Assembly (NCBI RefSeq): GCF_041262585.1
Contig: NZ_JBGCBZ010000002.1
Location: forward strand, 1-64,000
DNA length: 64,000 bases
Source of the DNA: Planotetraspora sp. GP83
Lineage (GTDB): Bacteria; Actinomycetota; Actinomycetes; Streptosporangiales; Streptosporangiaceae
Direction of reading: 5' to 3'
In this document: in pieces, positions 18,734 to 33,420 of the stretch
Position numbering within the stretch: position 1 is the stretch's first letter
How the letters are laid out: each line of letters opens with the position of its first letter
Translations under genes and position numbers: made by a program
The notes under the pieces: model-generated
Seen by the model: the letters and a program-made list of their open reading frames with translations, nothing else
What the model was told of the DNA's origin: nothing
Databases searched by the model: none

Positions 18734-20206
18734 TCACTTTGAGCCTCCCGTGACGGCCTGCGCGCCGAAGCCGATGTTGGCGTACACCTCCGGCCTGGTC
18801 GCCTTCAGCACACGAGCCCACACGACGCCGAAGACGATCGCGACGACGAAGATGCCGGGCAGGATCCAGCGAAGGACCGAGTCGGGCGCGACCCCCAGGA
18901 CCGTGTCGAAGTTGATCAGCGTCAGTCCGATGATCACACATAGCGCCAGGGCCGCCAGGGCCGGGGCGACGCGTGTCCGCCACGCCGTCTCCCCCGAGGG
19001 GTTCTTGGAGAAGAACACGATCACCGCGATCGAGGTGACGGCGAGCAGGGCCAGCAGCCCGAGGCCACCGAACGCGCCGAAAGTGAAGAACAGTTTCGTG
19101 ACCGGATCGAGGCCGGTGATCGCGTAGACGGCGATCACAATCAGCCCGAGCGCCGTCTGCAGCAACGATCCGGCCACCGGAGCGGCGGTGCGGGCCGAGG
19201 TGCGCCCGAACACCGGGGGAAGCACGTTTTCACGGCCCAGGGCGAAGATGTAGCGGGCCGTGGTGTTGTGGAAGGCGATCATGCAGGCGATGCTGCTGGT
19301 CACGAACAGCACGGAGCCGATCGCCGCGACGGTGGAGCCCAGATGGGCGGCCGCCTGGTTGAAGACGAGCACGGGCCCCTGTTCGGACGCCGCCTTGACG
19401 ATTCCGTCCGGCCCGGTCGGCACCGTCTGGGCCCAGGCGGAGATCGCGTACAGGACCGCGATGATCGCGATGCCCAGGTAGGTGGCGACGGGGACGGTCC
19501 TGTCGCGGTCCCTGGACTCCTCGGCGAAGACCACCGACGACTCGAATCCGGCGAACCCCGCGACGACAGTGGCGAGCGCGGCGCCCACACCGGGCACGAA
19601 CAGCGAGCCCGGGGTGAAGCCCTCGAAGTTGACGCCGCTCGGGGCGGCGTGGAACAGGTCACCGATGTCGAACACCAGGACGACGGTGATCTCGCTGACC
19701 AGCAGGACAGAGAGGACCTTGCCGTTGACGTCCACCCGCAGCAGGCCGAGCAGGCCGGTCAGCGCCCACGCCGCCAGCGCGATCACCCACCACGCGGGCG
19801 AGGCGTCGAACCAGTCGCGGAGCAGCGGCTCGGCCGCCGACCCGATGATTCCGTAGAGGCCAAGCTGCAGCGCGTTGTAGGCCAGCAGTGCCACCCACGC
19901 GGTCACCACCCCCTGCGTCCGGCCGAGCCCTTGGGCGGCATAGGCGTAGAACGCGCCCGCGTTCACGACGTGCCTGGCCATCGTCACGTATCCGACAGCG
20001 AAAAGCGCGAAGATCGCGCCCAGCATCAGGAACGCGAACGGCACACCGATGACGCCCGTCACCGCGTACGCCGTCGGGACCGAACCCGCGACGACCATCA
20101 GCGGCGCCGCCGCGGAGATGACGAAGAACACGACCGATGGGATGCCGAGCCGATCGTTGGCCAGCGCGCCGGACACGGCGCTGGGTCGTTGCTCTGTGAG
20201 GGACAT
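18734..20206 (-). CDS. APC-superfamily amino acid permease
   Basis: 490 aa with 12-13 predicted TM segments and APC-like composition. Confidence 0.8.
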   Translation of the reverse strand: MSLTEQRPSAVSGALANDRLGIPSVVFFVISAAAPLMVVAGSVPTAYAVTGVIGVPFAFLMLGAIFALFAVGYVTMARHVVNAGAFYAYAAQGLGRTQGVVTAWVALLAYNALQLGLYGIIGSAAEPLLRDWFDASPAWWVIALAAWALTGLLGLLRVDVNGKVLSVLLVSEITVVLVFDIGDLFHAAPSGVNFEGFTPGSLFVPGVGAALATVVAGFAGFESSVVFAEESRDRDRTVPVATYLGIAIIAVLYAISAWAQTVPTGPDGIVKAASEQGPVLVFNQAAAHLGSTVAAIGSVLFVTSSIACMIAFHNTTARYIFALGRENVLPPVFGRTSARTAAPVAGSLLQTALGLIVIAVYAITGLDPVTKLFFTFGAFGGLGLLALLAVTSIAVIVFFSKNPSGETAWRTRVAPALAALALCVIIGLTLINFDTVLGVAPDSVLRWILPGIFVVAIVFGVVWARVLKATRPEVYANIGFGAQAVTGGSK

Positions 20207-20805
20207 CCGGAAACTCCGTTAGATGGGGGGTGGGGGTCGCCAACGGTTGATCACACGGCTTCGCCGACGGCGACCTCGGTCTGAACGATGAGTCTCTGCA
20301 GCGGTACGGGGAAGCATGGCGATCGTGGCGGCCGCGAACGCGGGATCGCGCTCCCGCAGAGCCCGCTGGGCACCGCCGGTGGCGACGACAAGCCCGACGA
20401 GAGCCCAACGACGAGCCCGTGGAGGACGCGGTCACCGGCCCCGGGCGGCCTGCCCCGCTGGACGGCGAGGGTTAGGCGGGCGAGCGGCCACGCGGCCGTG
20501 TTGGCATTCACGGGGGCCGCGGGCTTGAAAGATCACCTTTAGGCACGAACCGCGATGATATAGGCGAATTGTTCAATCTGTCATCGATGAAAAAGTTTCG
20601 GATCGTCCGAGAAACAGTCCGCCCTCAATCCCCCAATGGCCGGATATATGCTGAGATGTTATCCTTCCGACCTAATGCGGACAGCGACCAGCGCGGAAAT
20701 CACGGCTCATGGTCACTCGGCCGGCGTATATCCGGCTGCGCGAGTCTCCATGCGTGACCCGCTTCCCACCGGCGCCGATAGCGCGCGGTCGGGGGCGGAA
20801 GACGA

Positions 20806-21231
20806 TTACTTCGGCAGCACGCCGATTTGCTGCAGTACGGCGAGCACGTCGTAATAGTCCGTCTGCCGCCTGATCAGGCCGTCTTCGGTGAACTCCATGA
20901 GGCTCAGCCCGCGGTTGTCGATGCGGCTGCCTCTGGCGGCGCTTTCCGGCAGGTGCGGGAAGTTGCCCAGCAGGGTTCCCGTCCCGTTCCAGGGCACGGC
21001 TGCCCGGCGGTCCGCGATGACGGCCTCGCCCATCTCGACATGGGTGTCCGGACACGCCTCGACCCATATCCGCATGAAGTCCGCCAGCTCCTTGCGTCCC
21101 TTGAAGGTCCGCCGAAGGGCGATGTCCTCGAAGACGGCGTCCTCGGTGTAGCACTCCGCCCAGCGCTCGGCGTCGTAGCTGTTGAAGGTGGCGAACCACT
21201 TCTCGATCGTGTCGGCCGGATCGTTCGTCAT
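20806..21231 (-). CDS. SnoaL-like / NTF2-fold protein (polyketide-cyclase-like or ketosteroid-isomerase-like)
   Basis: 141 aa. MTNDPADTIEKWFATFNSYDAERWAECYTEDAVFEDI... is a typical SnoaL_2 N-terminus. Confidence 0.65.
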   Translation of the reverse strand: MTNDPADTIEKWFATFNSYDAERWAECYTEDAVFEDIALRRTFKGRKELADFMRIWVEACPDTHVEMGEAVIADRRAAVPWNGTGTLLGNFPHLPESAARGSRIDNRGLSLMEFTEDGLIRRQTDYYDVLAVLQQIGVLPK

Positions 21232-21640
21232 CGCCTTGCCTTCTTTCCGGTGAGGGGCTTTCGCTGAGCCGAGCCGTACAGGGCTGGGGGAAACGGGCGA
21301 TCAGGGGCCTACCATTCGCGATCGATCAGGAGAGCCGAGAGCTCCTCGAGATCCTCACGCGCGCCCCCGGCGACGGAAGAAGCTGCCAACGACCTGGTTG
21401 GCCTCGAGAAACATCTCCTCGATGGCGTCTCCCCGTGATCCGACATCAGCTCCGAACAGCGATCGGATGTCGCCTGGTGGGCGGCTCTCGGCCGCACGCC
21501 GAAAGAATTGGCCGGCGGGTGCCGGTGGACTTCGCGGATGAGCCGCGGCACAACGCGATCCGCGTCATTCACGCGGAGATTTTCTACAAATGGCTTGGCA
21601 CGGCTGCGGGGAGGGCAGTGGTCTCACGGCCGGCGGCTCG

Positions 21641-24600
21641 TCAATGAGCCGATCCGTCAGGCAGGGCCGCACGTTCGATCGCCTTCTCGACGCCCCCTAC
21701 GCGGTCGGCGAGGAGACCGATGGCGCCGACGGCCCGGGAGACGGGGTCGTCTCCGTCCCCGCCCAGGGCCTTGGAGCGGAGGTAGCCGGATTTCACCTCC
21801 GCCCAGCGCCTGGCCTGGTCGGCGGTCATCGTGCCGCGCAACTCCGCCAGCTTGAGCAGGTTGGCCTCGGCCCCTGAGGCGAGAGTCTGGGCCTCCCCCA
21901 GGTAGTGGTCGTCGATCACCGCGTGGAGTTCGCCGTCGTTCATGACCGGAGCTATCCGCTCGGCCAGCTTGTTCATGTTCCGGTACGACCCCTGCAGCTG
22001 GAAGGGGGGCTCCGTGCGAGAGGCATCGGACTGGGCGGCCGACGCGATGTACGCCTCGTTGATCGCCAGCACGACTTCCTGGACCCGCAGAAGCTTGTCC
22101 AGCACCGCGAGGATCTGGTCGAGCTCGACTCTGGAATAGGGGTGGCTCAGCTGGTCGGCGCGCACCCCCGAATCACCTCGTGCCAGCCGTACCAGCAGTT
22201 CGACGTCGGCGCGGTCCCGCGTGGAGAGCGGCGCGAGAACGGGATTGGAAGTCAGCGCGTTCTCTATGTAACTCAGCGCGAACAGTTCCTCCTTGCCGGA
22301 CAGCACGTCGCCGAGGTTCCACACGTCGGCACGGTTGGCCAGCATGTCCGGGATGCGGAACCGCCCGCCCGACTCGGTGTACGGGTTGCCCGCCATGCAG
22401 ACGGCGAAGCGCTTGCCGCGCAGATCGTAGGTCCGGGTCCGGCCGTTCCAGACGCCCTCCATCCGGCGCTGCGCGTCGCACATCGAGATGAACTTCTGCA
22501 GCAGCTCGGGAGAGGTGTGCTGGATGTCGTCCAGATAGAGCAGCACGTTGTTCCCGCATTCCAGCGCGAACGAGACCTTCTCGATCTCCTGTCGCGCGGT
22601 GGCGTCCGGCGCCTGCGCCGGATCGAGCGAGGTGATCGCGTGGCCGAGTGACGGGCCGTTGACCTTGACGAACACCAGACCCAGCCGGCTCGCGACGTAC
22701 TCCATGAGCGTCGTCTTGCCGTACCCCGGCGGGGAGATGAGCAGCAGGAGCCCCATCTGATCGGTGCGCTTGGCCTCCCCCGCCGCGCCGAGCTGCTTGG
22801 CCAGGTTGTCACCGATCAGCGGCAGGTACACCTCGTCCAGCAGCCGGTTGCGCACGAACGCGCTCATCACCTTGGGCTGGTATTCGCCGAGCCGCAGCCG
22901 CGCCCGCTCGCGCTCGATGAGTTCGTTACGCCGCCGCTGGTAGGCCCGGTAGGCGGGCACCCGCTCGGTCCGGAACCGCCGGGTGCGGGTGAGCGTCTCG
23001 TCGAGGCGCAGCCCGAGGCTCCGCCCGGACAGCCGGGGATGCGCGCCCAGCAGACGCTCGACGGTGGTCGTCAGCGCCGCCGACGAGTCGTACCGCGGGA
23101 CATCACACAGCTGTACGGCGATCGCCTCCGCGAGGTCTCCGGCCTGTACAGCTCCCGCTTCCGCGTTCTGTTCGCCGGATTCGCGCAGGAAGGACGTGCG
23201 CAGGAAAGCCGCCAGCCAGGCCTCCGCCAGCTGATACCGGACTCCCAGGGCTCCCGGGACTCCCGGGACTCCCGCGGCGTCCGGATCATCGTCCAGGGCG
23301 CGCAGATCGTCCTCGAACTCCTTGAGGGAACCGCCGAGTGCCGCTCGAAACCTCCCCAGGATGCCTCGGGCGGCGGCGCTGGTGACGAAGCCGGAGGGCG
23401 AGCTCGACAGCTCCTCGAAGAGGTACTCCCCCGCGAGGCCGGTCTCACCGCCCGGCAGTCCGGCATCCCGCAGGAAACCGGCCATGGCCGACGCCAGTTC
23501 GGCTCGGATCTCGCCGATCGCGTCCATCCGAGGCTGCGAGAGCCGGGCCACCTCCGCCCCATGCCCGAACGCGCCCCGGGCCCGGGCCAGTGATCGGGCC
23601 CGCGTGGTCCAGGCCCTGCGGGCGGCCTCCGCCGTACCGAACGTCCAGAAGAGCTGTGCCGCGGCCCGCGCTTCGGGCGGGAAGCGCAGCAGACCGGCTC
23701 CCGTGTGGAGGCGGAGCAGGGCATCGAGGATCGCGGCGGCGTCCTGGTCATGGACGCCGCGCTCGTAACCCTCGTCGTAACGCGTCTCCGCGACGCGGCG
23801 CACCACCCCGAGCAGACCGCCGTCGGCGAGCGCGGCCGCGTGCAGAGCGTCGAGAGACAGTCCCGCGCCGCTGACGGCATCGGCCCCCGCGAGGCCGCCG
23901 GCCTCCGCTTCGGCGAGGATCGAAGCGGCGAGATGTTCCGCCCGATACACGTCGGCGGACTCGGAGACGAGCAACTGGTCCCAGAACGGCCGGGTCGCCT
24001 CGAACGACTCCTCGTCGACAGGCGACCGGTAGTCGGTCCCGGTGATGGCGAACGCCATTCGCCCGTCCAGGGGAACGAGCGTGAGGTCGAGCGGCTGGGT
24101 GTTGACGGCGAACCGGTGACGGCCGAGGCGGATGGTCGTCCCGGCGTCGGAGTAGAGGTCGACGCGGTCGCGCAGGGCACGGCCCGCGTCCAGGCGGGCC
24201 GACTTGATCCGGCCCTCCAGCTCTTCGGCCCGGACCTGGTCACCCAGCGAGCGCAGCTCATCGGCGACCGTTCGCAGCTTGGCCACCATGGGATCGGAGG
24301 CGAAGTAGGTGTTCACCTCCTCGATCGACTCGAGGCTCACAACACGCCGTCGCACGCTGCTCAGGATCCGGTCGGCGGAGACCGCCAGCCTGTCGGCCCG
24401 GCGCGCGCGCTCGTCCAGCAGCGCCTGCTTGCGTGAGGAGAACGCCTCGTAGACGTCCTCCCGCTTCTGCTCCAGCCGGGCCACGAGGTCGTCGAACTCC
24501 CCGAAGCGAGACCCCAGGTTCTCCAGTTGGAGCAGCAGTCGGCCCAACTGCTCGTCGCAGTGCTCGGGGGTGTCCGCCACCGCGAGCGCGCCGGTTATGG

Positions 24601-26707
24601 TCTGGCCGAGCACGGCGAACTCGGCGGCGAAGCCGGCCCTTCCTTCGGCCGCGAGCAGCTCCCCGCGTTTCGCCGCGAGAGTGGCCCGGGCCCGGTTGAT
24701 CCCGCCGAGCACCTCCCCGATCCGTTCCAGAATCGCGGTGCGCACGGTGACGTCGGTGATCTCCAGGGTGCCGACGACCTCGGTCAGGATCGCCAGCCCC
24801 TCGCCCTGCTCCACCAGCCGCTCCGAGATCGGCGCGGACTCCGCGACGGTCCTGATGGCCTGGGCGTCCGAGGTGAGCCGTTCCACGTCGGCGTGGTAGC
24901 CGGTGAACGCGTCGTCACGCTGGAGGAACGCGACAGCGCGCTGCGCGGCCGCGGCGAGCTCGGTCTCGAGGTGGCCGGCCAGCGCGTCGACCCGCTCGGT
25001 GTCGATGTAGCGCAGCTCCCGCAACGTCGCGAGGCGTCCCTGCGCACGCCGCAGCTCAGCGAGCTGCCGCACCCACGCGTCAGACGTCATGGGCGACTCG
25101 CCGCGCGCCTGCCGTACCAGCGACTCGATCCGCGCGGCGGCCTCGTCCAGCTCGGACGCCGCCTGGCGGGTGAGCGACTGGACCTTCTCGAACTCGTCCA
25201 GCACCTGCTCGGCGGTCGCCCTGACGTCGGCGAGCGGCGAGCGGAGATCGTGGTCGTTCAGCCAGTGGTAGTGGTCGAAAGCCCGGACGCATGCCGCGAT
25301 CAGCGCCTCGAAGACCGGCACCGACGGCGCCATCTCCTCGACCATGCGGACGACGGACAGGCAGTCCGAGACCCCGCGCACCAGCTCGGCGTTGCCGATG
25401 CGCTCCAGCGGCCCGGCGCCCACCGGCTGGGCCGCGGCGAAGGTGTCCGAGACGTACGGCGTCTGCCATACCTGCATGGGATGGACGCGGGTCGGCTCGT
25501 CACCGGTCGCCCGGAACACCACGAGGGTTCCGTCGTCGAACAGCGAGTAGCCGTGGCACGGGATCGGGTTGGCGACCTCCTTGCGGATCACGTTGTACGG
25601 CAGCAGCAGCGTCCGGCCCTCCGCCCTCGCGTGGAAGACGTAGAGCACGTCCTCCCCGTTGGGTGAGCGGATGACGCGCTCGAACTCCAGGCTGGCGACG
25701 TCCGTGTCGAAGGTCTTCGCCGTACCGGTGGCGAGGTAGTAGCCACCGGGGAAGATGATGCCCTGGTCTTCGGGTAGCCGCTGGCAGGCCTGTCCGATGC
25801 CGTCCAGCCGGACCACGCCTCTGGTCCTGGTGTTGAACACCAGGTGCCGCCACTCGGCCTCGTTGTAGGGCCGGATGCGGAGCAGGATCAGCGGACCGAC
25901 CCTGGCATAGTGGACGTCCGCGTCCGCCAGGCTCTGCAGCGGCTCGACGACGGGCTCACGGTAGATCCCCTCACCGGTCTCGGTGTTGTTCTCGACCTTG
26001 ACGGTGAGGTCGCCGCCCACGGTCTCGACGAACACCTCGTCGCCGATCGAGATGTGCGGGTGACGGCCGAGGACGTGGTCGTCCCTGGTGGTCGCCGTCC
26101 ACTCGAAGTCGTGCGACGGCGGGAAGACGTGGTCACGCTCGCCCCGGTTGTCCAGGTAGCTGACGGAGCCATCGGTTCCGACGCTCCATCGCAGCACTCG
26201 GATGTCCTGCGGGCCGGTCTGGAAGACGGCCAGCAGCCGGCCTTCCAGCCGGCGCAGCTGCGTCAGCCGGGTTTCCTTGTAGTACCGGTACAGTTCGCCG
26301 AAGTCCCGCTCGAACTGCTGGTCGTCGAGCAGCAGGGGGGCGTCGTCGAACCGGAAGGCGTCGCCGTCGCGGATGAAACGGTGACACGAGAACACGTCCC
26401 GGACGGTCGTCTCGGACTTCAGCCCGATGAACACGTTGTAGCCGAACAGCATGACCCCGCCCACCGACACGATGTCGCGGGGCACGCAGTTGTTCTCGGT
26501 GCGGATGCGCTCGGTGCCGACCAGCCGGAGCTCGGCGCCGCCGAAGACCTCCAGGCGCCGGGCGTTGAGCGCCTCGGCCCGGCGGGCGAGCTCCTTGGCC
26601 TGCTCGGACAGCCGGGACCGGAGCACCTCATAGGTGCCCGCGTCGAGCCCCGCCCGCGTCTCGATGAGCTGTGTCTCGGTGAGCTGTGTCTCGATGGCCT
26701 CTGTCAC
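21641..26707 (-). CDS. giant (1688 aa) protein with a C-terminal MoxR/AAA_5-type ATPase domain and a long uncharacterised, coiled-coil-rich N-terminal region
   Basis: GTG start 7 nt after the flotillin stop. Walker A LLLISPPGYGKTTL, Walker B NNVLLYLDDIQH, then a MoxR-like sensor region RTRTYDLRGKRFAVCMAGNP. I did not recognise any domain in the first ~1150 residues. Confidence 0.85.
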   Translation of the reverse strand: MTEAIETQLTETQLIETRAGLDAGTYEVLRSRLSEQAKELARRAEALNARRLEVFGGAELRLVGTERIRTENNCVPRDIVSVGGVMLFGYNVFIGLKSETTVRDVFSCHRFIRDGDAFRFDDAPLLLDDQQFERDFGELYRYYKETRLTQLRRLEGRLLAVFQTGPQDIRVLRWSVGTDGSVSYLDNRGERDHVFPPSHDFEWTATTRDDHVLGRHPHISIGDEVFVETVGGDLTVKVENNTETGEGIYREPVVEPLQSLADADVHYARVGPLILLRIRPYNEAEWRHLVFNTRTRGVVRLDGIGQACQRLPEDQGIIFPGGYYLATGTAKTFDTDVASLEFERVIRSPNGEDVLYVFHARAEGRTLLLPYNVIRKEVANPIPCHGYSLFDDGTLVVFRATGDEPTRVHPMQVWQTPYVSDTFAAAQPVGAGPLERIGNAELVRGVSDCLSVVRMVEEMAPSVPVFEALIAACVRAFDHYHWLNDHDLRSPLADVRATAEQVLDEFEKVQSLTRQAASELDEAAARIESLVRQARGESPMTSDAWVRQLAELRRAQGRLATLRELRYIDTERVDALAGHLETELAAAAQRAVAFLQRDDAFTGYHADVERLTSDAQAIRTVAESAPISERLVEQGEGLAILTEVVGTLEITDVTVRTAILERIGEVLGGINRARATLAAKRGELLAAEGRAGFAAEFAVLGQTITGALAVADTPEHCDEQLGRLLLQLENLGSRFGEFDDLVARLEQKREDVYEAFSSRKQALLDERARRADRLAVSADRILSSVRRRVVSLESIEEVNTYFASDPMVAKLRTVADELRSLGDQVRAEELEGRIKSARLDAGRALRDRVDLYSDAGTTIRLGRHRFAVNTQPLDLTLVPLDGRMAFAITGTDYRSPVDEESFEATRPFWDQLLVSESADVYRAEHLAASILAEAEAGGLAGADAVSGAGLSLDALHAAALADGGLLGVVRRVAETRYDEGYERGVHDQDAAAILDALLRLHTGAGLLRFPPEARAAAQLFWTFGTAEAARRAWTTRARSLARARGAFGHGAEVARLSQPRMDAIGEIRAELASAMAGFLRDAGLPGGETGLAGEYLFEELSSSPSGFVTSAAARGILGRFRAALGGSLKEFEDDLRALDDDPDAAGVPGVPGALGVRYQLAEAWLAAFLRTSFLRESGEQNAEAGAVQAGDLAEAIAVQLCDVPRYDSSAALTTTVERLLGAHPRLSGRSLGLRLDETLTRTRRFRTERVPAYRAYQRRRNELIERERARLRLGEYQPKVMSAFVRNRLLDEVYLPLIGDNLAKQLGAAGEAKRTDQMGLLLLISPPGYGKTTLMEYVASRLGLVFVKVNGPSLGHAITSLDPAQAPDATARQEIEKVSFALECGNNVLLYLDDIQHTSPELLQKFISMCDAQRRMEGVWNGRTRTYDLRGKRFAVCMAGNPYTESGGRFRIPDMLANRADVWNLGDVLSGKEELFALSYIENALTSNPVLAPLSTRDRADVELLVRLARGDSGVRADQLSHPYSRVELDQILAVLDKLLRVQEVVLAINEAYIASAAQSDASRTEPPFQLQGSYRNMNKLAERIAPVMNDGELHAVIDDHYLGEAQTLASGAEANLLKLAELRGTMTADQARRWAEVKSGYLRSKALGGDGDDPVSRAVGAIGLLADRVGGVEKAIERAALPDGSAH

Positions 26708-26714
26708 GGGCGCG

Positions 26715-28790
26715 TCAGTGCTTCCCGGAGTTGAGTGCCGCGACCGGCTGCTCGGCCACGCCCAGCCGCTGCGCGGCGCTCAGCAGATCCTGCAGCTTGC
26801 CGGCGTCGGGGCCACCCGCCTTGATCAGCTTCACGAGCAGGGCGGACAGCGTGAGATTCCGCACGTCCGCCGTGTCCAGCGAGCCGAGCATCCGGGAGAG
26901 GTCCTGCGGAAGGCTTAAGGTCCCGTCGAGGTACGGCGTGGCGAGCGCCCGTGCCACGCTCGAATTCTCGACGAAGCCGTCCACGCTCTTGCCCATCGTG
27001 ATCGAGCTCATGAGCCGGTCGAAGAAGATGCTCTCGCCGCCGACGATATCGATGTCGGCCTTCTCCAGTCCCGCCGCCAGCACGGTCGCCTGCGCCTGCG
27101 CGACGTCCCGCTGGACGTCGATGCTCTTGAGACGGATCTCCTTCTCCGCGTCCAGCCGGAGCCGGTACTCCTCGTGCCCGCGGCTCGCCTCGTCCAGCGC
27201 GGCCAGCGCCGCGGCCTTCTGGGTGAGGCCTTCCGCCTCGGCCTTGAGCTTCTCGCCCACAGCCGCCGCGGCGGCCAGCGCCATCGCCTGCTCACCCTCG
27301 GCTTCCGCCTTGAGCTTCTCACCCATGGCCAGCGCGGCGGCGAGGGCCTTCTCCCGCTCGACGGTGGCCTCCGCGCGTCCCATCTTCTCGACGGCTTCGG
27401 CGTCGCGCTCGCGCACCTGGACCTCGGCGAGCCCGACCGCGGCCGCCTCCGCCTGGAGACCCTCCGCGAGGCGGATCTTCGCCCGGCTGTCGAGCTCGGC
27501 CGCCTGCTGGCGGGCCTCGGCGAGGACGAGCTCCTCACGGGCCTTGTACTTCGCGGCCTGCTCGGCGGCCTCGGCGGCCTTGATGTCCTTGACCAGGTTC
27601 TCCTGCGCCACGGCCTCGGCCTGGATCACCAGCGCCTGTCGCGTCCGCTCCGCCTCCTCGACGACACGCAGGCGCTTGATGTTCTCCTCCTGCTCTGCGA
27701 CCGTCTTGTCCACCGCGATCCGCTCGCGCGTCACCTCGGCGATCGCCCGCTTCTCGACCTCGAGTTCCTTGTCCTTGGCGATTCGCGACAGCTCGGTCTC
27801 GCGCTCCCGGGCGATTACCTCGAGCATGCGGTCCTTCTCGATCCGCTCGCTCTCGATCGCGATGACACGCTCGCGGTTCTTCTCCGCGACGGCGATCTCC
27901 CTCGCCCGGTTCTCGTGCTGGATGCCGAGTTGCTCGTCGGTGCGGATGTTCGCGGCCTGGGCCTTCAGCCGCTCCTCGGCCTGGACCCTGGCGGTCTCGG
28001 CCTCCTCGCGCGCCTTCATGGTCTCGATCTCGCGCCTCTGCTTGGTCTCCGCGTCGGCCTGCCGTCGCTCCAGCTCCAGGATGGCCTCCCGCGCGTCGAC
28101 ATTCTGGCGGGTGATCTCCTTCTGCTCGTTGCGCTGATACTCGTTGGTCCGGATGTGCTCTATCGCGGTCAGCTCAGTGATCTTGCGAATGCCCTGCGCG
28201 TCGAGGATGTTGGCCGGGTCGAGCTGCGCCATGGGCGTCTGCTCGAGGAAGTCGATGGCGGCGTCCTCGAGGCTGTAGCCGTTCAGGTCGGTGCCGATCA
28301 CCCGGACGATCTGGTCGCGGAACTCGTCGCGCTTCGTGTAGAGGTCGACGAAGTCGAGTTGCTTGCCGACCGTCTTGAGCGCCTCGGAGAACTTGGCGTT
28401 GAACAGCACCTGCAGCGTCGACTCGTCGCTGGCCCGGGCGGTGCCGATCGCCTGGGCCACCTTGATGACGTCTTCGACGGTCTTGTTGACCCGCACGAAG
28501 AACGTGATGCGTATGTCGGCCCGGATGTTGTCCCGGCAGATCAGCCCCTCCTGGCCGGTCCGGGTGATCTCGATCGTCTTCACCGAGATGTCCATCACCT
28601 CGGCCTTGTGCAGCACGGGCAGGACGATGGCGCCGGTGAACGTCACGTCGACGTTCCTGACCTTGGAGACGATCAGGGCCTTACCCTGCTCGACCTTGTG
28701 AAACAGCCGGGTCACGGCGAACACGAGACCGATGACGACGAGAAGGAGAACGGCGAGAAGAACGCCCATCCCCGTGGTGATGACATCCAT
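26715..28790 (-). CDS. flotillin-family protein (SPFH/band-7 domain + long Ala/Glu-rich coiled-coil repeats)
   Basis: N-terminal TM helix then SPFH core (EQGKALIVSKVRNVDVTFTGAIVLPVLHKAEVMDISVKTIEI...). Central EA-repeat region with internal duplicated units (GEKLKAEAEG x2). Confidence 0.85.
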   Translation of the reverse strand: MDVITTGMGVLLAVLLLVVIGLVFAVTRLFHKVEQGKALIVSKVRNVDVTFTGAIVLPVLHKAEVMDISVKTIEITRTGQEGLICRDNIRADIRITFFVRVNKTVEDVIKVAQAIGTARASDESTLQVLFNAKFSEALKTVGKQLDFVDLYTKRDEFRDQIVRVIGTDLNGYSLEDAAIDFLEQTPMAQLDPANILDAQGIRKITELTAIEHIRTNEYQRNEQKEITRQNVDAREAILELERRQADAETKQRREIETMKAREEAETARVQAEERLKAQAANIRTDEQLGIQHENRAREIAVAEKNRERVIAIESERIEKDRMLEVIARERETELSRIAKDKELEVEKRAIAEVTRERIAVDKTVAEQEENIKRLRVVEEAERTRQALVIQAEAVAQENLVKDIKAAEAAEQAAKYKAREELVLAEARQQAAELDSRAKIRLAEGLQAEAAAVGLAEVQVRERDAEAVEKMGRAEATVEREKALAAALAMGEKLKAEAEGEQAMALAAAAAVGEKLKAEAEGLTQKAAALAALDEASRGHEEYRLRLDAEKEIRLKSIDVQRDVAQAQATVLAAGLEKADIDIVGGESIFFDRLMSSITMGKSVDGFVENSSVARALATPYLDGTLSLPQDLSRMLGSLDTADVRNLTLSALLVKLIKAGGPDAGKLQDLLSAAQRLGVAEQPVAALNSGKH

Positions 28791-28802
28791 CCAAGTCCCC
28801 TG

Positions 28803-29429
28803 TCAGTGGAGGTCGTAGGGCATGACCCAGAAGAACTCGCCCTCTGGGTCGTAGTCGAAGATGAGGGCGGAGCTGCCGGCGCGGAGATCGTCGGCTCCCG
28901 TCTGGCGCACCTGGACGAGGGCCGAGGAGCCGTCCTCCGCCGTGACCTCGGCCTGGCCGAAATCGGGTCCGACCCGTCCAGTACGGATGACGCACATGCG
29001 GCCGACGAAGTCGCTCCGCGACGGCGCGGGCACGGCCGGGAACAGCGCGCGGATCGGCAGCACCAACAGGCGGGTGCACAGCCAGCCGGCGAGAAGCGCG
29101 ACCAGAAGGACAGCGGTCCGTGCGGCCGTCCCCTCCACCAGCGCCGCGCCGGCGAGGCTGACGAACCAGGAGATCACCACCATGAGCGAGATCACGACGC
29201 TGGCCGGCACTCCGCGCAGCCCGATGCCGGTCAGGAGATCGTCGGGCAACTCCAACCCCAGGCCCCCCAGCGGCACGAGCAGCCAGTAGCCGATGACGAC
29301 CAGCAGCATGAAGCTGAACAGGACCGCCGGGAACCCGAGCGCCGCGCCCACGAAATCCCGCATTGACTCCCACCGTTTTGCGAGCGTCTCCCCCGAGACG
29401 TAACGCATTATTGCCCGATAGCCAGGCAA
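28803..29429 (-). CDS. NfeD-like membrane protein (TM helices + C-terminal OB-fold), the usual operon partner of SPFH proteins. Alternative ATG start at 29408.
   Basis: 3-4 TM helices followed by a soluble beta-rich tail ...GRMCVIRTGRVGPDFGQAEVTAEDGSSALVQVRQ.... 12-nt gap to the flotillin gene. Confidence 0.7.
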   Translation of the reverse strand: MPGYRAIMRYVSGETLAKRWESMRDFVGAALGFPAVLFSFMLLVVIGYWLLVPLGGLGLELPDDLLTGIGLRGVPASVVISLMVVISWFVSLAGAALVEGTAARTAVLLVALLAGWLCTRLLVLPIRALFPAVPAPSRSDFVGRMCVIRTGRVGPDFGQAEVTAEDGSSALVQVRQTGADDLRAGSSALIFDYDPEGEFFWVMPYDLH

Positions 29430-29485
29430 TTGTCAGCATCTATTTCGCTTGGAATAGTGGGCACTTTTCGCCGTTTTCGCGCGTT

Positions 29486-29507
29486 GTTACCGACGCCCAT
29501 AGGTAAC
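29486..29507. promoter_or_regulatory. perfect inverted repeat GTTACC-N10-GGTAAC in the promoter region of the NfeD-flotillin-ATPase operon; candidate operator
   Basis: Seen directly, ~55-80 bp upstream of the operon's first start codon. Confidence 0.3.
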
Positions 29508-29606
29508 ACAGCAGAAGACAGGCCGCGGCTGCCGGCCCGCGAACACCACCGCAGGGACGCGTTGCCGTCTGCTCGCCCGGCGAGCTGGGACTTGTCGCCC
29601 GGCGAG

Positions 29607-30419
29607 CTAGGACTTGCGGGCTACGGCCCCGTACAACGATGCCTCGGCCAACGGGACGGGCTCGATTTCGGGGTAGTCCGGACGCCAGGCGGAGACGGGA
29701 ACCACGCCCGGATCAACGAGGTCGAGCCCATCGAAGAAGCTCTCGACCTCCCCGAGACCGCGGATCCGAAGATCGATGCCGGCCCTGGTGTAGATCTGGC
29801 TGCCGGTCTCGGATTGGCCGGGGGGCAGATGGTCGCCCGTCCCATGGGACAGGGCAAGGTAGCTACCTGGCGGAACGGCGTCGATCAACTGGTTGACGAT
29901 CGCGTACGGCTGATCCTGGTCTGGGATGAAATGGAGAATCGCGAACAGCAACACGGCGATCGGTTGCGAGAAGTCCAGTGCGCTCATCCGCTTGTCGGAC
30001 AAGATCTCGCCGGGGTCGCGCAGGTCGGCATCGATGTAATCGACGACTCCGTCCGCGGTGGTCAACAGTGCCCGAGCGTGAGTGAGCACGATCGGGTCGT
30101 TGTCCACGTAGATCACGCGCACATCCGGGTCGATACGTTGAGCGACCTGGTGGGTGTTGTTCGCCGTGGGGATCCCCGTACCGATATCTATGAACTGCCT
30201 GATCCCGGCCTCTGCCGCCAGATAGCGGATAACACGCCCGAGGAAGGCTCGATTCTCCCGGGCCGTGGTCCGCATTGCCGGAAAGTTGGCCAGGACCTTC
30301 TCGGCGGCTTCGCGATCGGACGCGAAATTGTCCTTTCCGCCGAGATAGTAGTCGTACATCCGGGCCGAGCTCGGGATGGTCGGATCGATGACGATCGGAT
30401 CCCGATCCCAGGCAGCCAT
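29607..30419 (-). CDS. SAM-dependent methyltransferase of the DUF574 (AdoMet_MTase, PF04672/Methyltransf_19) family
   Basis: Start ATG (rc cat 30417-30419): MAAWDRDPIVIDPTIPSSARMYDYYLGGKDNFASDRE... is the hallmark N-terminus of this actinobacterial family. DIGTGIP SAM motif. Confidence 0.75.
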   Translation of the reverse strand: MAAWDRDPIVIDPTIPSSARMYDYYLGGKDNFASDREAAEKVLANFPAMRTTARENRAFLGRVIRYLAAEAGIRQFIDIGTGIPTANNTHQVAQRIDPDVRVIYVDNDPIVLTHARALLTTADGVVDYIDADLRDPGEILSDKRMSALDFSQPIAVLLFAILHFIPDQDQPYAIVNQLIDAVPPGSYLALSHGTGDHLPPGQSETGSQIYTRAGIDLRIRGLGEVESFFDGLDLVDPGVVPVSAWRPDYPEIEPVPLAEASLYGAVARKS

Positions 30420-30449
30420 TCCCGCATCCTTCCGTCTGTATAAGCACAC

Positions 30450-30848
30450 TGTAGATCATCTGGGTGTTCCCATTCGCCGGGGGCGCTTCCCCGCCAAGCC
30501 GCTGACGCTCGCGTTCTGCGCGCTGACCCGCCAGGTGGCCGCCACGCCGCGGCCATGCGCATGGAGTCATGACGAGTGAGTCTTGGACGGCGCGCGCCCC
30601 CGATCTCATCGTGGTGAGCGGTACGCCGAGCGCTCTGCCGGAAGGGTGACAGACATCCCGGCCCGCACGCGCGGACGACCACGTCATCTGCGCGGTCGTC
30701 TTCACGGTTGCCACGGGATCAAGCCAGTCGAAGGCAGCAGGAGCGGCCCCTCCAACTCTTCGAGCAGTCGCACACATGAGGCATGGTGCTTGTCATCCCG
30801 ATCGACAACAGCGATCAATGGACCCGTGTCCAGGAGCGTGGCGGTCAC
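30450..30848 (-). pseudogene. vapC: vapC-like PIN-domain toxin gene, disrupted (frameshift/premature stop after ~48 codons)
   Basis: GTG at rc 30846-30848 overlaps the VapB stop (GTGA). It encodes VTATLLDTGPLIAVVDRDDKHHASCVRLLEELEGPLLLPSTGLIPWQP*, a canonical PIN N-terminus. PIN-like residues continue in another frame (..DWLDPVATVKTTAQM..). Confidence 0.5.
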
Positions 30849-31108
30849 GTTGACCGATTGAACCGCTCCGCCAGCAGATCTTCGACCCGTTCCGACAGAT
30901 CCCCCTGACCGGAGGCACCAATCCCCGCGATCGACAACCGCCGACGGCGAACGGGCTCAGACGGTTCAGCTGATGCCGCCTCAGCCAAGTCAGGGTCCGT
31001 CTTCACCAAACGCAGGAGACGACGCGCCTGGTCCGGTGACAGCCGGTCCACCAGGTGGTGAAGCTCCTCATGCGCATGCCCGGCGCTCATAGCAACGAGT
31101 CTACGCAA
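30845..31108 (-). CDS. vapB: VapB-like type II antitoxin (small DNA-binding protein)
   Basis: 87 aa: MSAGHAHEELHHLVDRLSPDQARRLLRLV..., acidic C-terminus. Stop overlaps the GTG of the PIN gene. Confidence 0.5.
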   Translation of the reverse strand: MRRLVAMSAGHAHEELHHLVDRLSPDQARRLLRLVKTDPDLAEAASAEPSEPVRRRRLSIAGIGASGQGDLSERVEDLLAERFNRST

Positions 31109-31406
31109 GCGACATCGCCTGCGTCAGTGACTGCAGCGCCGGGTTCACCCTGTGGGCGCCGTAGTCGGGGCTGGCCGCCGGATGCTCGCAGAACAGGTAG
31201 GGCGCCACAAGCCAGGAGACCGTGGGCAGGGTGCCGTCCTTGCAGTGCTGGTCGAAGGCGGTCAGATCCCACTTCGTCATCACGTTGACGTACCGCGGGT
31301 CGTCCTTGGCGAAGGCGTGGAACCCGGCATAACCCCATGGGTCACGAACTGCCGAAACAGCAAACCCACAGGTGAGAGTCCTGTTACTGGCCCGGTTCGA
31401 TTCCCG
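31101..31406 (-). pseudogene. internal fragment of a phosphoesterase-family (phospholipase C / acid phosphatase, PF04185) gene; no start codon, reads into repeat R2
   Basis: Stop-to-stop frame encodes ...DPWGYAGFHAFAKDDPRYVNVMTKWDLTAFDQHCKDGTLPTVSWLVAPYLFCEHPAASPDYGAHRVNPALQ. The LPxVSW..P...EHP block is the conserved phosphoesterase motif. Confidence 0.45.
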
Positions 31407-31418
31407 TCACCCGCTCGC
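31352..31418. repeat. repeat R2, partner of R1 (13052-13118)
   Basis: gaaacagcAAACCCACAGGTGAGAgtcctgttactggcCCGGTTCGATTcccGTCACCCGCTCg. Confidence 0.6.
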
Positions 31419-31486
31419 AACCTCTTCCGGGGAACCGCTCGCTCCGAAAGGCGGGGCGGGCGGCGCGGCGCGGCGGTGATGGGTGA

Positions 31487-31629
31487 TCACCGGCGCAGCA
31501 GGAGCCGCAGCACCCGCAGGGCCCGGGCCCGGCGGTCGGGCTTGGCCGAGAACAGGTAGACGACCGCGGGGGTGGCCACCAGGAGCGCGCCGATGGTGCC
31601 GAGGTCCGCCAGCTGGGTGAGGATGGTCA
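31487..31629 (-). CDS. small (47 aa) single-TM protein with an Arg-rich C-terminus; hypothetical
   Basis: ATG preceded by AAGGGA 8 nt upstream. MTILTQLADLGTIGALLVATPAVVYLFSAKPDRRARALRVLRLLLRR. Confidence 0.3.
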
Positions 31630-31989
31630 TGGGGTGCGTCCCTTTCGCGTGTGGAGTGCGCCCCGTGGGGTGGTGTGGTGCCGGCGACGGTTGCGACGGG
31701 GCCGGGCCACGCCACCCCGATTCACCTGCCGGTACGGCGGTGCGGGACCGCCATCGGCGGGGATGCCGACGGCGTATCTCCAAGGTGCGGTACGCCAGAG
31801 CCCCGTTGACGATCTCGTCCGATCGTTGACGGGAACGGATGAACCCGTACACCTCATGACGCCCGCTGACAGACGCGGACACCGGTAGGGCGCTGACGAA
31901 TCCTGACGAACCCCTCCCTCCCGGGGGAGAGTGCGGCCATTTCTGGCGGCAGTTCCGCAAAGGGGCTTTACGTTTTCTGACGGTCTGGA

Positions 31990-33420
31990 ATGCTCGATCC
32001 CGCCATGCCCGACGCCCCCGCCACCCCGCCCGGCGACGACGCCCTGGCCGCCCTGCGCGACCGGCTCCAGGAGCTGTATCGCCACCGCGGCAGGCCCAGC
32101 TACCGCCAGCTGGCCGACCGCACCGGCGCACTGAGCCACACCACCGCCCACGCGGTCATCCGCTGCCAGAAGCTGCCACGCTGGGGCCAGATCGAGCTCA
32201 CCGTCGAGGCGCTCGGCGGCGATGTGGAGGAGTTCCGCGCCCTGTGGCTAGCCGCCGACGAAGCCGCCACCCGTGCGGCGGCCACGCCGCCCCCAGCCGA
32301 GCCGACGGGGCTGTACCAGCCGGTCGGCGAACTCCTCACCGGCCACACCCACCCGGTCTGTGGGGTGGCCTTCCACCCTGACGGCCACTTACTCGCTACC
32401 ACTGGCGCCGACACGACGGTGCGGCTGTGGGACACCATCACCGGCCAACCCATCGGCGAGCCCCTCACCGGCCACACCAACGTCGTCTGGAGGGTGGCCT
32501 TCCACCCGGACGGCCACCTCCTCGCCACCGCCAGCTACGACAAGACGGTGCGGCTGTGGGACGTCGCCACCGGCCAGCAGGTCGGCGAGCCCCTCGCACA
32601 CACCGACCTCCTCATCGGGGTGGCCTTCCACCCCGACGGCCACCTCCTCGCCACCAACGGTAAGGGGGAAACGGTCTGGCTCTGGGACCCCATCACGCGC
32701 CAGCCCGTCGGCGCGCTTCTCACACACACCGGCTCCCTCATCGGGGTGGCCTTCCACCCCGAGGGCCATCTCCTCGCCACCACAAGCCACGACCAGACAG
32801 TTCGGCTGTGGGACGTCGCCACCGGCCAGCAGGTCGGCGAGCCCCTCACCGGCCACACCCGCCCCGTCTATGGGGTGGCCTTCCACCCCGACGGCCACCT
32901 CCTCGCCACCACTGGCGCCGACACGACGGTGCGGCTGTGGGACACCAGCACCGGCCAACCCATCGGCGAACCCCTCACCGGCCACACCGACGCTGTCTCG
33001 AAGGTGGCCTTTCACCCCGACGGCCACCTCCTCGCCACCGCCAGCAACGACGCCACGGTGCGGCTGTGGGACACCATCACCGGCCAACCCATCGGCGAAC
33101 CCCTCACCGGCCACACCGGCTGGGTTCAAGGGGTGGCTTTCCACCCCGACGGCCACCTCCTCGCCACCAGCGGCTGGGACCGCACGGTGCGGCTCTGGCA
33201 GGGCCCGCGCGCATCCGATCCTCAGGCGTCGCGCCGACGCGTTCAGGACCTGCGCGCCCGGCTGGCGAAACTACGCACCGCCCACGACCGGCTGGTACGT
33301 GAGGTTGCCGCCGTACGGGGTGAACGTGACCAGCTGCTCGCCAAGATCGCCGAGTGTCGGGACAATCTCACAGACCAGGCGCCGGAAGGAAGACCGGATT
33401 CCGCAGAGCACCCTGTATGA
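31990..33420 (+). CDS. HTH (XRE-like) - WD40 repeat protein with C-terminal coiled coil
   Basis: N-terminal ...GRPSYRQLADRTGALSHTTAHAVIRC. Seven WD40 units (GHTxxVxxVAFHPDGHLLATxxxDxTVRLWD), each ~126 bp and highly similar at nucleotide level. Confidence 0.85.
   Translation: MLDPAMPDAPATPPGDDALAALRDRLQELYRHRGRPSYRQLADRTGALSHTTAHAVIRCQKLPRWGQIELTVEALGGDVEEFRALWLAADEAATRAAATPPPAEPTGLYQPVGELLTGHTHPVCGVAFHPDGHLLATTGADTTVRLWDTITGQPIGEPLTGHTNVVWRVAFHPDGHLLATASYDKTVRLWDVATGQQVGEPLAHTDLLIGVAFHPDGHLLATNGKGETVWLWDPITRQPVGALLTHTGSLIGVAFHPEGHLLATTSHDQTVRLWDVATGQQVGEPLTGHTRPVYGVAFHPDGHLLATTGADTTVRLWDTSTGQPIGEPLTGHTDAVSKVAFHPDGHLLATASNDATVRLWDTITGQPIGEPLTGHTGWVQGVAFHPDGHLLATSGWDRTVRLWQGPRASDPQASRRRVQDLRARLAKLRTAHDRLVREVAAVRGERDQLLAKIAECRDNLTDQAPEGRPDSAEHPV

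Follow-up and report, generated by a model that had tools for sequence, protein, structure and literature searches.

Ravi et al. (mSystems 2024, PMC11237479; preprint 2020) described an operon in which a CesT/Tir-PspA pair is combined with a three-transmembrane protein of the YqiJ/YuaF type, a flotillin, and an ATPase made up of beta-propeller, coiled-coil and AAA+ regions. Its prototype is the neighborhood of Dokdonia donghaensis ANH61663.1. The same paper (PMC11237479) reported abbreviated operons that do not have the CesT/Tir-PspA pair and are more widely distributed, and predicted by comparative genomics that the operon acts with PspA/ESCRT-III-type proteins in membrane dynamics at the inner face of the cell membrane. 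Here we analyze a three-gene operon in a 64,000-nucleotide stretch of DNA (contig NZ_JBGCBZ010000002.1, positions 1 to 64,000, referred to below as the window) from the actinomycete Planotetraspora sp. GP83. The operon consists of genes for a YqiJ-like membrane protein, a flotillin and a giant ATPase:

28803..29363, minus strand: YqiJ/YuaF-type (NfeD2-like) membrane protein, 186 amino acids (transmembrane prediction, hhalign, Pfam matches in orthologs)
26715..28790, minus strand: YqiK-type flotillin, 691 amino acids (BLASTP and hhalign against Escherichia coli YqiK)
21641..26707, minus strand: giant ATPase, 1688 amino acids, soluble (open reading frame, Pfam, AlphaFold2 models)

We did not find a CesT/Tir-PspA dyad in the window, so the operon belongs to the published abbreviated form. 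An original prediction, made from the sequence of the window, had held that the arrangement was undescribed, which is incorrect because both the long and the abbreviated forms are in Ravi et al. (PMC11237479). The locus is an ortholog, in the three-gene form, of a computationally described system and not a new kind of system.

The three genes form a tightly conserved operon. In the window they correspond to three co-directional open reading frames on the minus strand (28803..29429, 26715..28790 and 21641..26707), separated by gaps of only 12 and 7 nucleotides, just as the original prediction had stated. We surveyed gene neighborhoods by scanning one genome per species, which returned 43 loci from Actinomycetota, Acidobacteriota, Myxococcota, Alphaproteobacteria, Gammaproteobacteria and Bacteroidota, that is, from at least five phyla. 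The ATPase gene is immediately preceded by a flotillin homolog in all 40 loci that have upstream DNA (in two of them the end of the contig trims the flotillin to its C-terminus). The YqiJ-like gene precedes the flotillin gene, and its cluster comprises 38 sources, the window being one of them. All-against-all clustering of the flanking open reading frames in the 43 loci showed no conserved fourth gene. In four actinomycete loci the candidate start codon of the ATPase overlaps the stop codon of the flotillin by 4 nucleotides. Across loci, the partners vary together in sequence identity, with correlation coefficients of 0.97 (the value for flotillin against ATPase) and 0.93; this covariation largely mirrors shared phylogeny. 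The ATPase family is large: more than 6,800 proteins match the window protein at E <= 1e-5, and at the 50% cluster level there are 1,381 matching representatives.

A few loci in the survey have unusual structures. In a metagenome-assembled genome from the family Sandaracinaceae (L012:7781-15328), the flotillin and ATPase frames are continuous without a stop codon, because of either a natural fusion or misassembly; in two near-identical loci (L013 and L014) the genes are separate. In one Cyclobacteriaceae locus an additional SPFH-like paralog is found just upstream of the flotillin gene (L024:7057-7632), and in another, 886 nucleotides separate flotillin and ATPase (L022:9072-9959).

The giant ATPase is 100% identical to an NCBI protein of Planotetraspora sp. 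GP83 (Streptosporangiales) that bears the name 'DNA repair ATPase', and transmembrane prediction found no membrane-spanning segment in it. Its first ~1150 residues had been thought impossible to place in any family, but Pfam assigns DUF3686 (PF12458) to residues 39-481 (E = 8e-226) and DUF7902 to residues 599-682 (E = 2.6e-28). The Pfam families AAA and AAA_5 match weakly at residues 1321-1447, with an AAA_5 score of 24.5 against a threshold of 22. Two AlphaFold2 models, built on an alignment of 64 sequences with 26-80% identity to the query, have predicted local distance difference test (pLDDT) values of 85.5 and 90.6. From the models and the alignment, the protein can be divided as follows:

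25463..26527, minus strand: beta-rich, propeller-like domain of about 28 strands, residues 61-415, equivalent to Pfam DUF3686 (AlphaFold2)
24155..25393, minus strand: long helical coiled-coil and bundle region, residues 439-851, which includes DUF7902 (AlphaFold2)
22856..24136, minus strand: small beta domain and helical middle domain, residues 858-1284 (AlphaFold2; no Pfam match)
22028..22855, minus strand: MoxR-class AAA+ module, residues ~1285-1560 (motifs, AlphaFold2)
21641..22027, minus strand: conserved C-terminal helical extension, residues 1561-1688, and stop codon (alignment, AlphaFold2)

The AAA+ core is structurally closest to members of the MoxR class, in agreement with the AAA_5/MoxR-type ATPase that had been proposed for the C-terminus, and the three motifs named in that proposal are all present: PPGYGKTTL (residues 1326-1334) contains Walker A (GYGKT, 1328-1332), LLYLDDIQH (1389-1397) contains Walker B (LLYLDD, 1389-1394), and RFAVCMAGNP (1433-1442) contains the sensor-1 region (MAGNP, 1438-1442). 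There is an ANRAD arginine at residues 1457-1461, and the C-terminal extension carries the near-invariant motif EPPFxLQGSYRNMNK. The nucleotide-binding motifs are invariant or nearly so across the homolog alignment. Walker B departs from the canonical hhhhDE pattern, because its acidic pair is Asp-Asp and not Asp-Glu (residues 1393-1394, window 22526-22531), and this pair is nearly invariant in 64 diverse homologs. The substitution may indicate that ATP hydrolysis is slow or regulated.

The second gene codes for a flotillin with one N-terminal transmembrane segment, a divergent SPFH domain at approximately residues 30-190, and an Ala/Glu-rich coiled coil (residues 215-560 are 20.5% Ala and 19.1% Glu). 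Pfam Band_7 (PF01145) does not match it at E < 0.1, and matches only 2 of 14 orthologs (best E = 8.9e-9). A search of PDB sequences with a profile of 14 flotillin sequences found nothing. Nevertheless, judging from the sequence comparison, the protein is clearly homologous to E. coli YqiK: the BLASTP match has an E-value of 2e-39 (28% amino acid sequence identity over 486 residues, including the SPFH region), and hhalign gives a probability of 99.9%. The YqiK homology and the Ala/Glu composition bear out the original description of a flotillin with an SPFH domain and a long, Glu/Ala-rich coiled coil. We also noticed that residues 560-691 (window 26715-27110) are highly conserved among the ATPase-linked orthologs–for example, in the motif IDIVGG..FFDR....GKSVDGFV–and that this C-terminal region (approximately residues 560-690) has no alignable counterpart in E. 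coli YqiK. This region could be the surface on which the ATPase docks.

The first protein has three transmembrane-like segments followed by a C-terminal beta domain of about 70 residues. Its similarity to E. coli YqiJ is low (hhalign probability 72%, E = 3.4e-5) and BLASTP against YqiJ found nothing, but Pfam YqiJ_N matches 3 of its 13 orthologs, and the Hymenobacter ortholog is annotated as DUF1449. Direct scans of this protein and of the flotillin with Pfam, NCBIfam and PADLOC gave no significant family. It had been predicted to be NfeD-like with an OB-fold tail; the membrane topology and the beta region at the C-terminus are there, but Pfam NfeD (PF01957) has no match at E <= 1 in the window protein or the 13 orthologs. 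Modest sequence evidence thus points to a weak relationship, and only to the YqiJ/YuaF (NfeD2) branch.

In some lineages the triad is linked to PspA. Six Bacteroidota loci (L021, L022, L027, L029, L033 and L041) have two extra co-directional genes directly upstream of the triad, which code for a CesT_Tir/YbjN-like protein of 130-135 residues and a PspA/IM30 protein of 234-236 residues (E ~1e-42). On a Hymenobacter plasmid the annotated order is Tir chaperone, PspA/IM30, DUF1449, flotillin (named 'hypothetical') and 'DNA repair ATPase'. On the Pseudomonas fluorescens SBW25 megaplasmid pQBR103 (L045/L046, NC_009444.1, record 84437-97641), a run of ten co-directional genes connects a yjf-type PspA operon directly with the triad, in the order YjfI, PspA/IM30, rhomboid protease, DUF2491, DUF350, DUF1190, glutathionylspermidine-synthase-like, YqiJ-like, SPFH, and 'DNA repair ATPase', with YjfI standing in place of the CesT/Tir-like gene. 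This plasmid is experimentally tractable. The six Bacteroidota loci and the two plasmids thus reproduce the long form reported by Ravi et al. (PMC11237479).

We propose, with a probability of roughly 55%, that the YqiJ-like protein and the flotillin make up a scaffold that the giant MoxR-type ATPase remodels, or whose clients it remodels, under membrane stress. The best reading of the module is that it acts on the cytoplasmic face of the membrane in membrane stress. The three-transmembrane YqiJ-like protein and the single-transmembrane flotillin would co-assemble into a membrane-anchored, oligomeric SPFH scaffold, on which the soluble 1688-residue protein would dock by its propeller-like N-terminal domain, its coiled coils, or both. 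When the envelope or membrane is under stress, the C-terminal MoxR-class AAA+ module of this protein, as a ring, would spend ATP on assembling, disassembling or remodeling the scaffold or the clients held by it, and the protein may work together with a PspA encoded elsewhere. This scheme is suggested by the YqiK homology, by the topology of the YqiJ-like protein, and by a MoxR-class fold with conserved motifs in an ATPase that has no transmembrane segment. It is suggested also by the invariable adjacency of flotillin and ATPase, the 4-nucleotide overlaps, the correlation of r = 0.97 and the linkage to PspA. The membrane-anchored remodeling machine of the original prediction, which it resembles, agrees with the published one (PMC11237479). 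Results from two other species are consistent with it: the SPFH protein YdjI of Bacillus subtilis is reported to recruit PspA to the membrane and to localize it there (PMC8581546), and Staphylococcus aureus FloA-NfeD is reported to stabilize unfolded proteins (PMC11222466).

Several observations weigh against this proposal. The Asp-Asp pair in Walker B means that vigorous ATP hydrolysis is not assured. MoxR ATPases are usually paired with a VWA partner, and the giant ATPase has none: no fourth gene is conserved beside it, and the 25 commonest Pfam families in a census of 143 neighboring genes do not include VWA. PspA was not found in the 64-kb window, either by tblastn or with a hidden Markov model of 8 PspA sequences (no match at E <= 10), so the link to the phage-shock-protein (PSP) response is indirect here. 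In the literature we searched, there was no experimental study of any member of the operon. Lastly, S. aureus FloA-NfeD is reported to act without ATP (PMC11222466).

A more ambitious version of the proposal, which we regard as tentative and somewhat doubtful, is that the giant protein is a dedicated energy-consuming motor for the assembly or disassembly of a bacterial flotillin cage. It would then be the first regulator of SPFH microdomains known to be driven by ATP, with a role resembling that of Vps4 for ESCRT-III or of an uncoating ATPase for coats. The giant protein could also form a membrane-proximal lattice itself, an idea prompted by its layout of a propeller followed by a long helical region, for which Foldseek returned weak matches to coat-type proteins (IFT-A, clathrin heavy chain and nucleoporins; E-values of 1e-6 to 1e-4, with TM-scores of <=0.13 on the query).

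Alternatively, the substrate of the ATPase could be a PspA/ESCRT-III-type polymer that is encoded elsewhere and disassembled in a Vps4-like manner, with the flotillin and the YqiJ-like protein serving only as a membrane platform. The presence of PspA in the same co-directional cluster in the six Bacteroidota loci, the Hymenobacter plasmid and pQBR103 speaks for this possibility, as does the reported localization of PspA by YdjI in B. subtilis (PMC8581546). However, we consider it unlikely because the invariant neighbor of the ATPase is flotillin (40/40 loci), whereas PspA is present in only 6 of the 43 sampled loci and nowhere in the window. Moreover, the AAA+ module is MoxR-class and not of the classical Vps4 clade, and a Pfam scan detected no MIT-like domain.

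The original prediction had also placed the operon in a repeat-bounded accessory segment with toxin-antitoxin modules at its edges, and had raised the possibility of a defense or stress system. DNA identity between the window and three congeneric Planotetraspora genomes covers the operon only (window 29508..21654 in the closest relative, 29488..21665 in the other two), and the genomic context of the operon differs between species of this genus. That this identity ends at or near the ends of the operon is the sole support for calling the segment accessory. The rest of the description did not hold up: we found only short, low-identity chance repeats around the operon, and none of the 20 small flanking open reading frames tested gave a toxin-antitoxin match in Pfam. 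Giant ATPases are common in defense systems, and an anti-phage or abortive-infection role, with flotillin and ATPase together sensing infection at the membrane, would fit the varying context among congeners, the occurrence of the operon on a few megaplasmids, and sporadic PADLOC matches among the neighbors in one or two loci. Even so, such a role is very improbable. None of the three proteins has a significant match in PADLOC-DB 2.0 (the ATPase has only marginal matches in the Walker A region, to IetA with E = 0.002 and mad8 with E = 0.05), and Pfam detected no effector domain such as a nuclease, pore or NADase. Homologs are absent from all 50,697 phage records searched. The giant ATPase retains 70-75% identity over ~1,650 residues across actinomycete orders, which fits strong purifying selection better than arms-race diversification.

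The neighborhoods, too, speak against a defense role. A census of the 143 neighboring genes yielded mainly dehydrogenases, LysR and LuxR regulators, TerC and MoaA-like proteins, without a recurrent defense family or any enrichment for defense genes. Homologs occur in only 13 of 72,556 plasmid records, several of which are chromosome-sized. TerC accounts for 4 of the 143 sampled neighbors, and on a 561-kb linear plasmid of Streptomyces sp. NBC_00080 (L047, record 151162-158697) the triad is near genes for TerD, a CBS-domain protein, superoxide dismutase and CopC. Such neighbors may hint at a stress-island context.

The last alternative, that the protein is a DNA-repair ATPase which adjoins membrane genes only by chance, takes its cue from the NCBI name, from weak RuvB-region matches around Walker A, and from Pfam, which describes DUF3686 as an 'ATPase involved in DNA repair'. 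It is extremely improbable. The RuvB and IetA matches span only ~30-45 residues at the P-loop (20 bits against a cut-off of 282), and Pfam and NCBIfam show no domain for DNA binding, nuclease activity or repair. The genes that invariably accompany the ATPase code for two membrane proteins, and repair genes are not a recurrent feature of the neighborhoods. In the literature we searched, DUF3686 and PF12458 are not mentioned, and nothing relevant connects a 'DNA repair ATPase' with flotillin. The name, which is attached to thousands of proteins, is probably a misnomer and probably misleads annotation.

Upstream and downstream of the operon we recorded three possible regulatory features:

29407..29436, minus strand: sigma70-like promoter, CTGACA-18 nt-AATAAT (consensus scan, 10 of 12 matches; upstream alignment)
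29486..29507, no strand assigned: palindrome GTTACC-N10-GGTAAC (perfect; one match, 0.01 expected by chance)
21512..21525, minus strand: terminator-like hairpin ~115 nucleotides downstream of the operon (consensus scan only)

The first open reading frame could begin at a TTG codon at 29429, but this codon sits inside the promoter (29436..29407), and the ATG at 29363 has a Shine-Dalgarno sequence, GGTGGGAG, in front of it, in a block that is conserved in four Planotetraspora genomes. For these reasons the ATG, giving a protein of 186 residues, is most likely the true start. The promoter spacer holds an inverted repeat, TTGCC-N9-GGCAA. An alignment of four upstream regions shows that the promoter block is kept within Planotetraspora, whereas comparison of upstream regions shows no such conservation in the other genera of actinomycetes; nor did the cross-genus comparison reveal any upstream regulatory motif common to these genera. 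The palindrome, ~50 nucleotides upstream of the -35 element, had been noted previously as operator-like. It does exist, but it is degenerate in the closest relative (L001) and absent in two other Planotetraspora species (L002 and L008), so it is probably not a conserved operator. Terminator-like sites were no more numerous in the consensus scan than expected from shuffled sequence, and an Rfam scan of positions 20000-32500 gave nothing credible.

The immediate neighbors of the operon in the window are a gene for a Methyltransf_19 S-adenosylmethionine-dependent methyltransferase (29607-30449), a fragment of a phosphoesterase gene, and genes for a SnoaL-like protein and an amino-acid permease. 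A 22-nucleotide tandem duplication (two copies of TCGCCCGGCGAGCTGGGACTTG, 95% identical) at 29573-29616 extends across the 3' end of this methyltransferase gene and lies a short way upstream of the promoter region of the operon. The phosphoesterase fragment (PF04185; 60 residues, 31101-31283, minus strand) is part of a stretch of 2.5 kb upstream of the operon, within 28001-32000, that has a poor coding signal and a G+C content of 0.65, as compared to 0.70 in the operon; from its sequence, this stretch looks like a decayed region. Further upstream there is a gene for a WD40-repeat protein of 476 residues (31990-33420, plus strand), which has a non-WD40 N-terminal region of ~115 residues and contains 129-nucleotide tandem repeat units that are 61-89% identical in DNA sequence.

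The mechanistic role of bacterial flotillins is still debated, and they have been viewed as scaffolds, as fluidity regulators and as ATP-independent holdases. In many phyla the operon links a flotillin gene with that of a giant MoxR-class ATPase, and in some with pspA as well, and this linkage offers a tractable handle on flotillin and PspA dynamics. The value of the locus lies in this widespread putative coupling and in the probably misleading database name; the operon in the window is itself an ordinary ortholog and not a defense-island novelty.

The coupling of SPFH cages to AAA+ proteins, and of Vps4 to ESCRT-III, is well established. HflK/C-FtsH, prohibitin with the m-AAA protease, and Vps4-ESCRT-III are functional analogies only, in that each combines a membrane scaffold or polymer with a hexameric AAA+ remodeler. 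Rings and domes formed by SPFH proteins are mentioned in the literature. Unlike them, the ATPase in the window has no protease domain and no transmembrane segment and belongs to a different AAA+ clade, and its coupling to a scaffold is read from gene order alone. Among MoxR-VWA pairs such as CbbQ-CbbO, NorQ-NorD and RavA-ViaA, the ATPase is about one-sixth the size of the window protein, which has a propeller-like domain and coiled coils before its AAA+ module. In contrast to those pairs, the operon has no partner gene with a VWA domain or metal-ion-dependent adhesion site (MIDAS), Walker B has Asp-Asp, and the AAA_5 score is barely above the threshold. The SPFH2/NfeD2 operons yqiJ-yqiK of E. 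coli and yuaF-floT of B. subtilis (Hinderhofer et al. 2009, PMC2636767) have an NfeD2/YqiJ-type gene followed by a flotillin gene, as in the window. However, in E. coli yqiK is followed not by an ATPase gene but by sibD/ibsD, and the window flotillin exceeds YqiK by 138 residues and has at its C-terminus a conserved region that does not align to YqiK. The operon of Ravi et al. (PMC11237479), whose paper reports no experiments and does not place the ATPase in the MoxR clade or DUF3686, is the closest: although the window has the three-gene form only, with no PspA within 64 kb, the two share the same three proteins, with the same domain architectures and in the same gene order.

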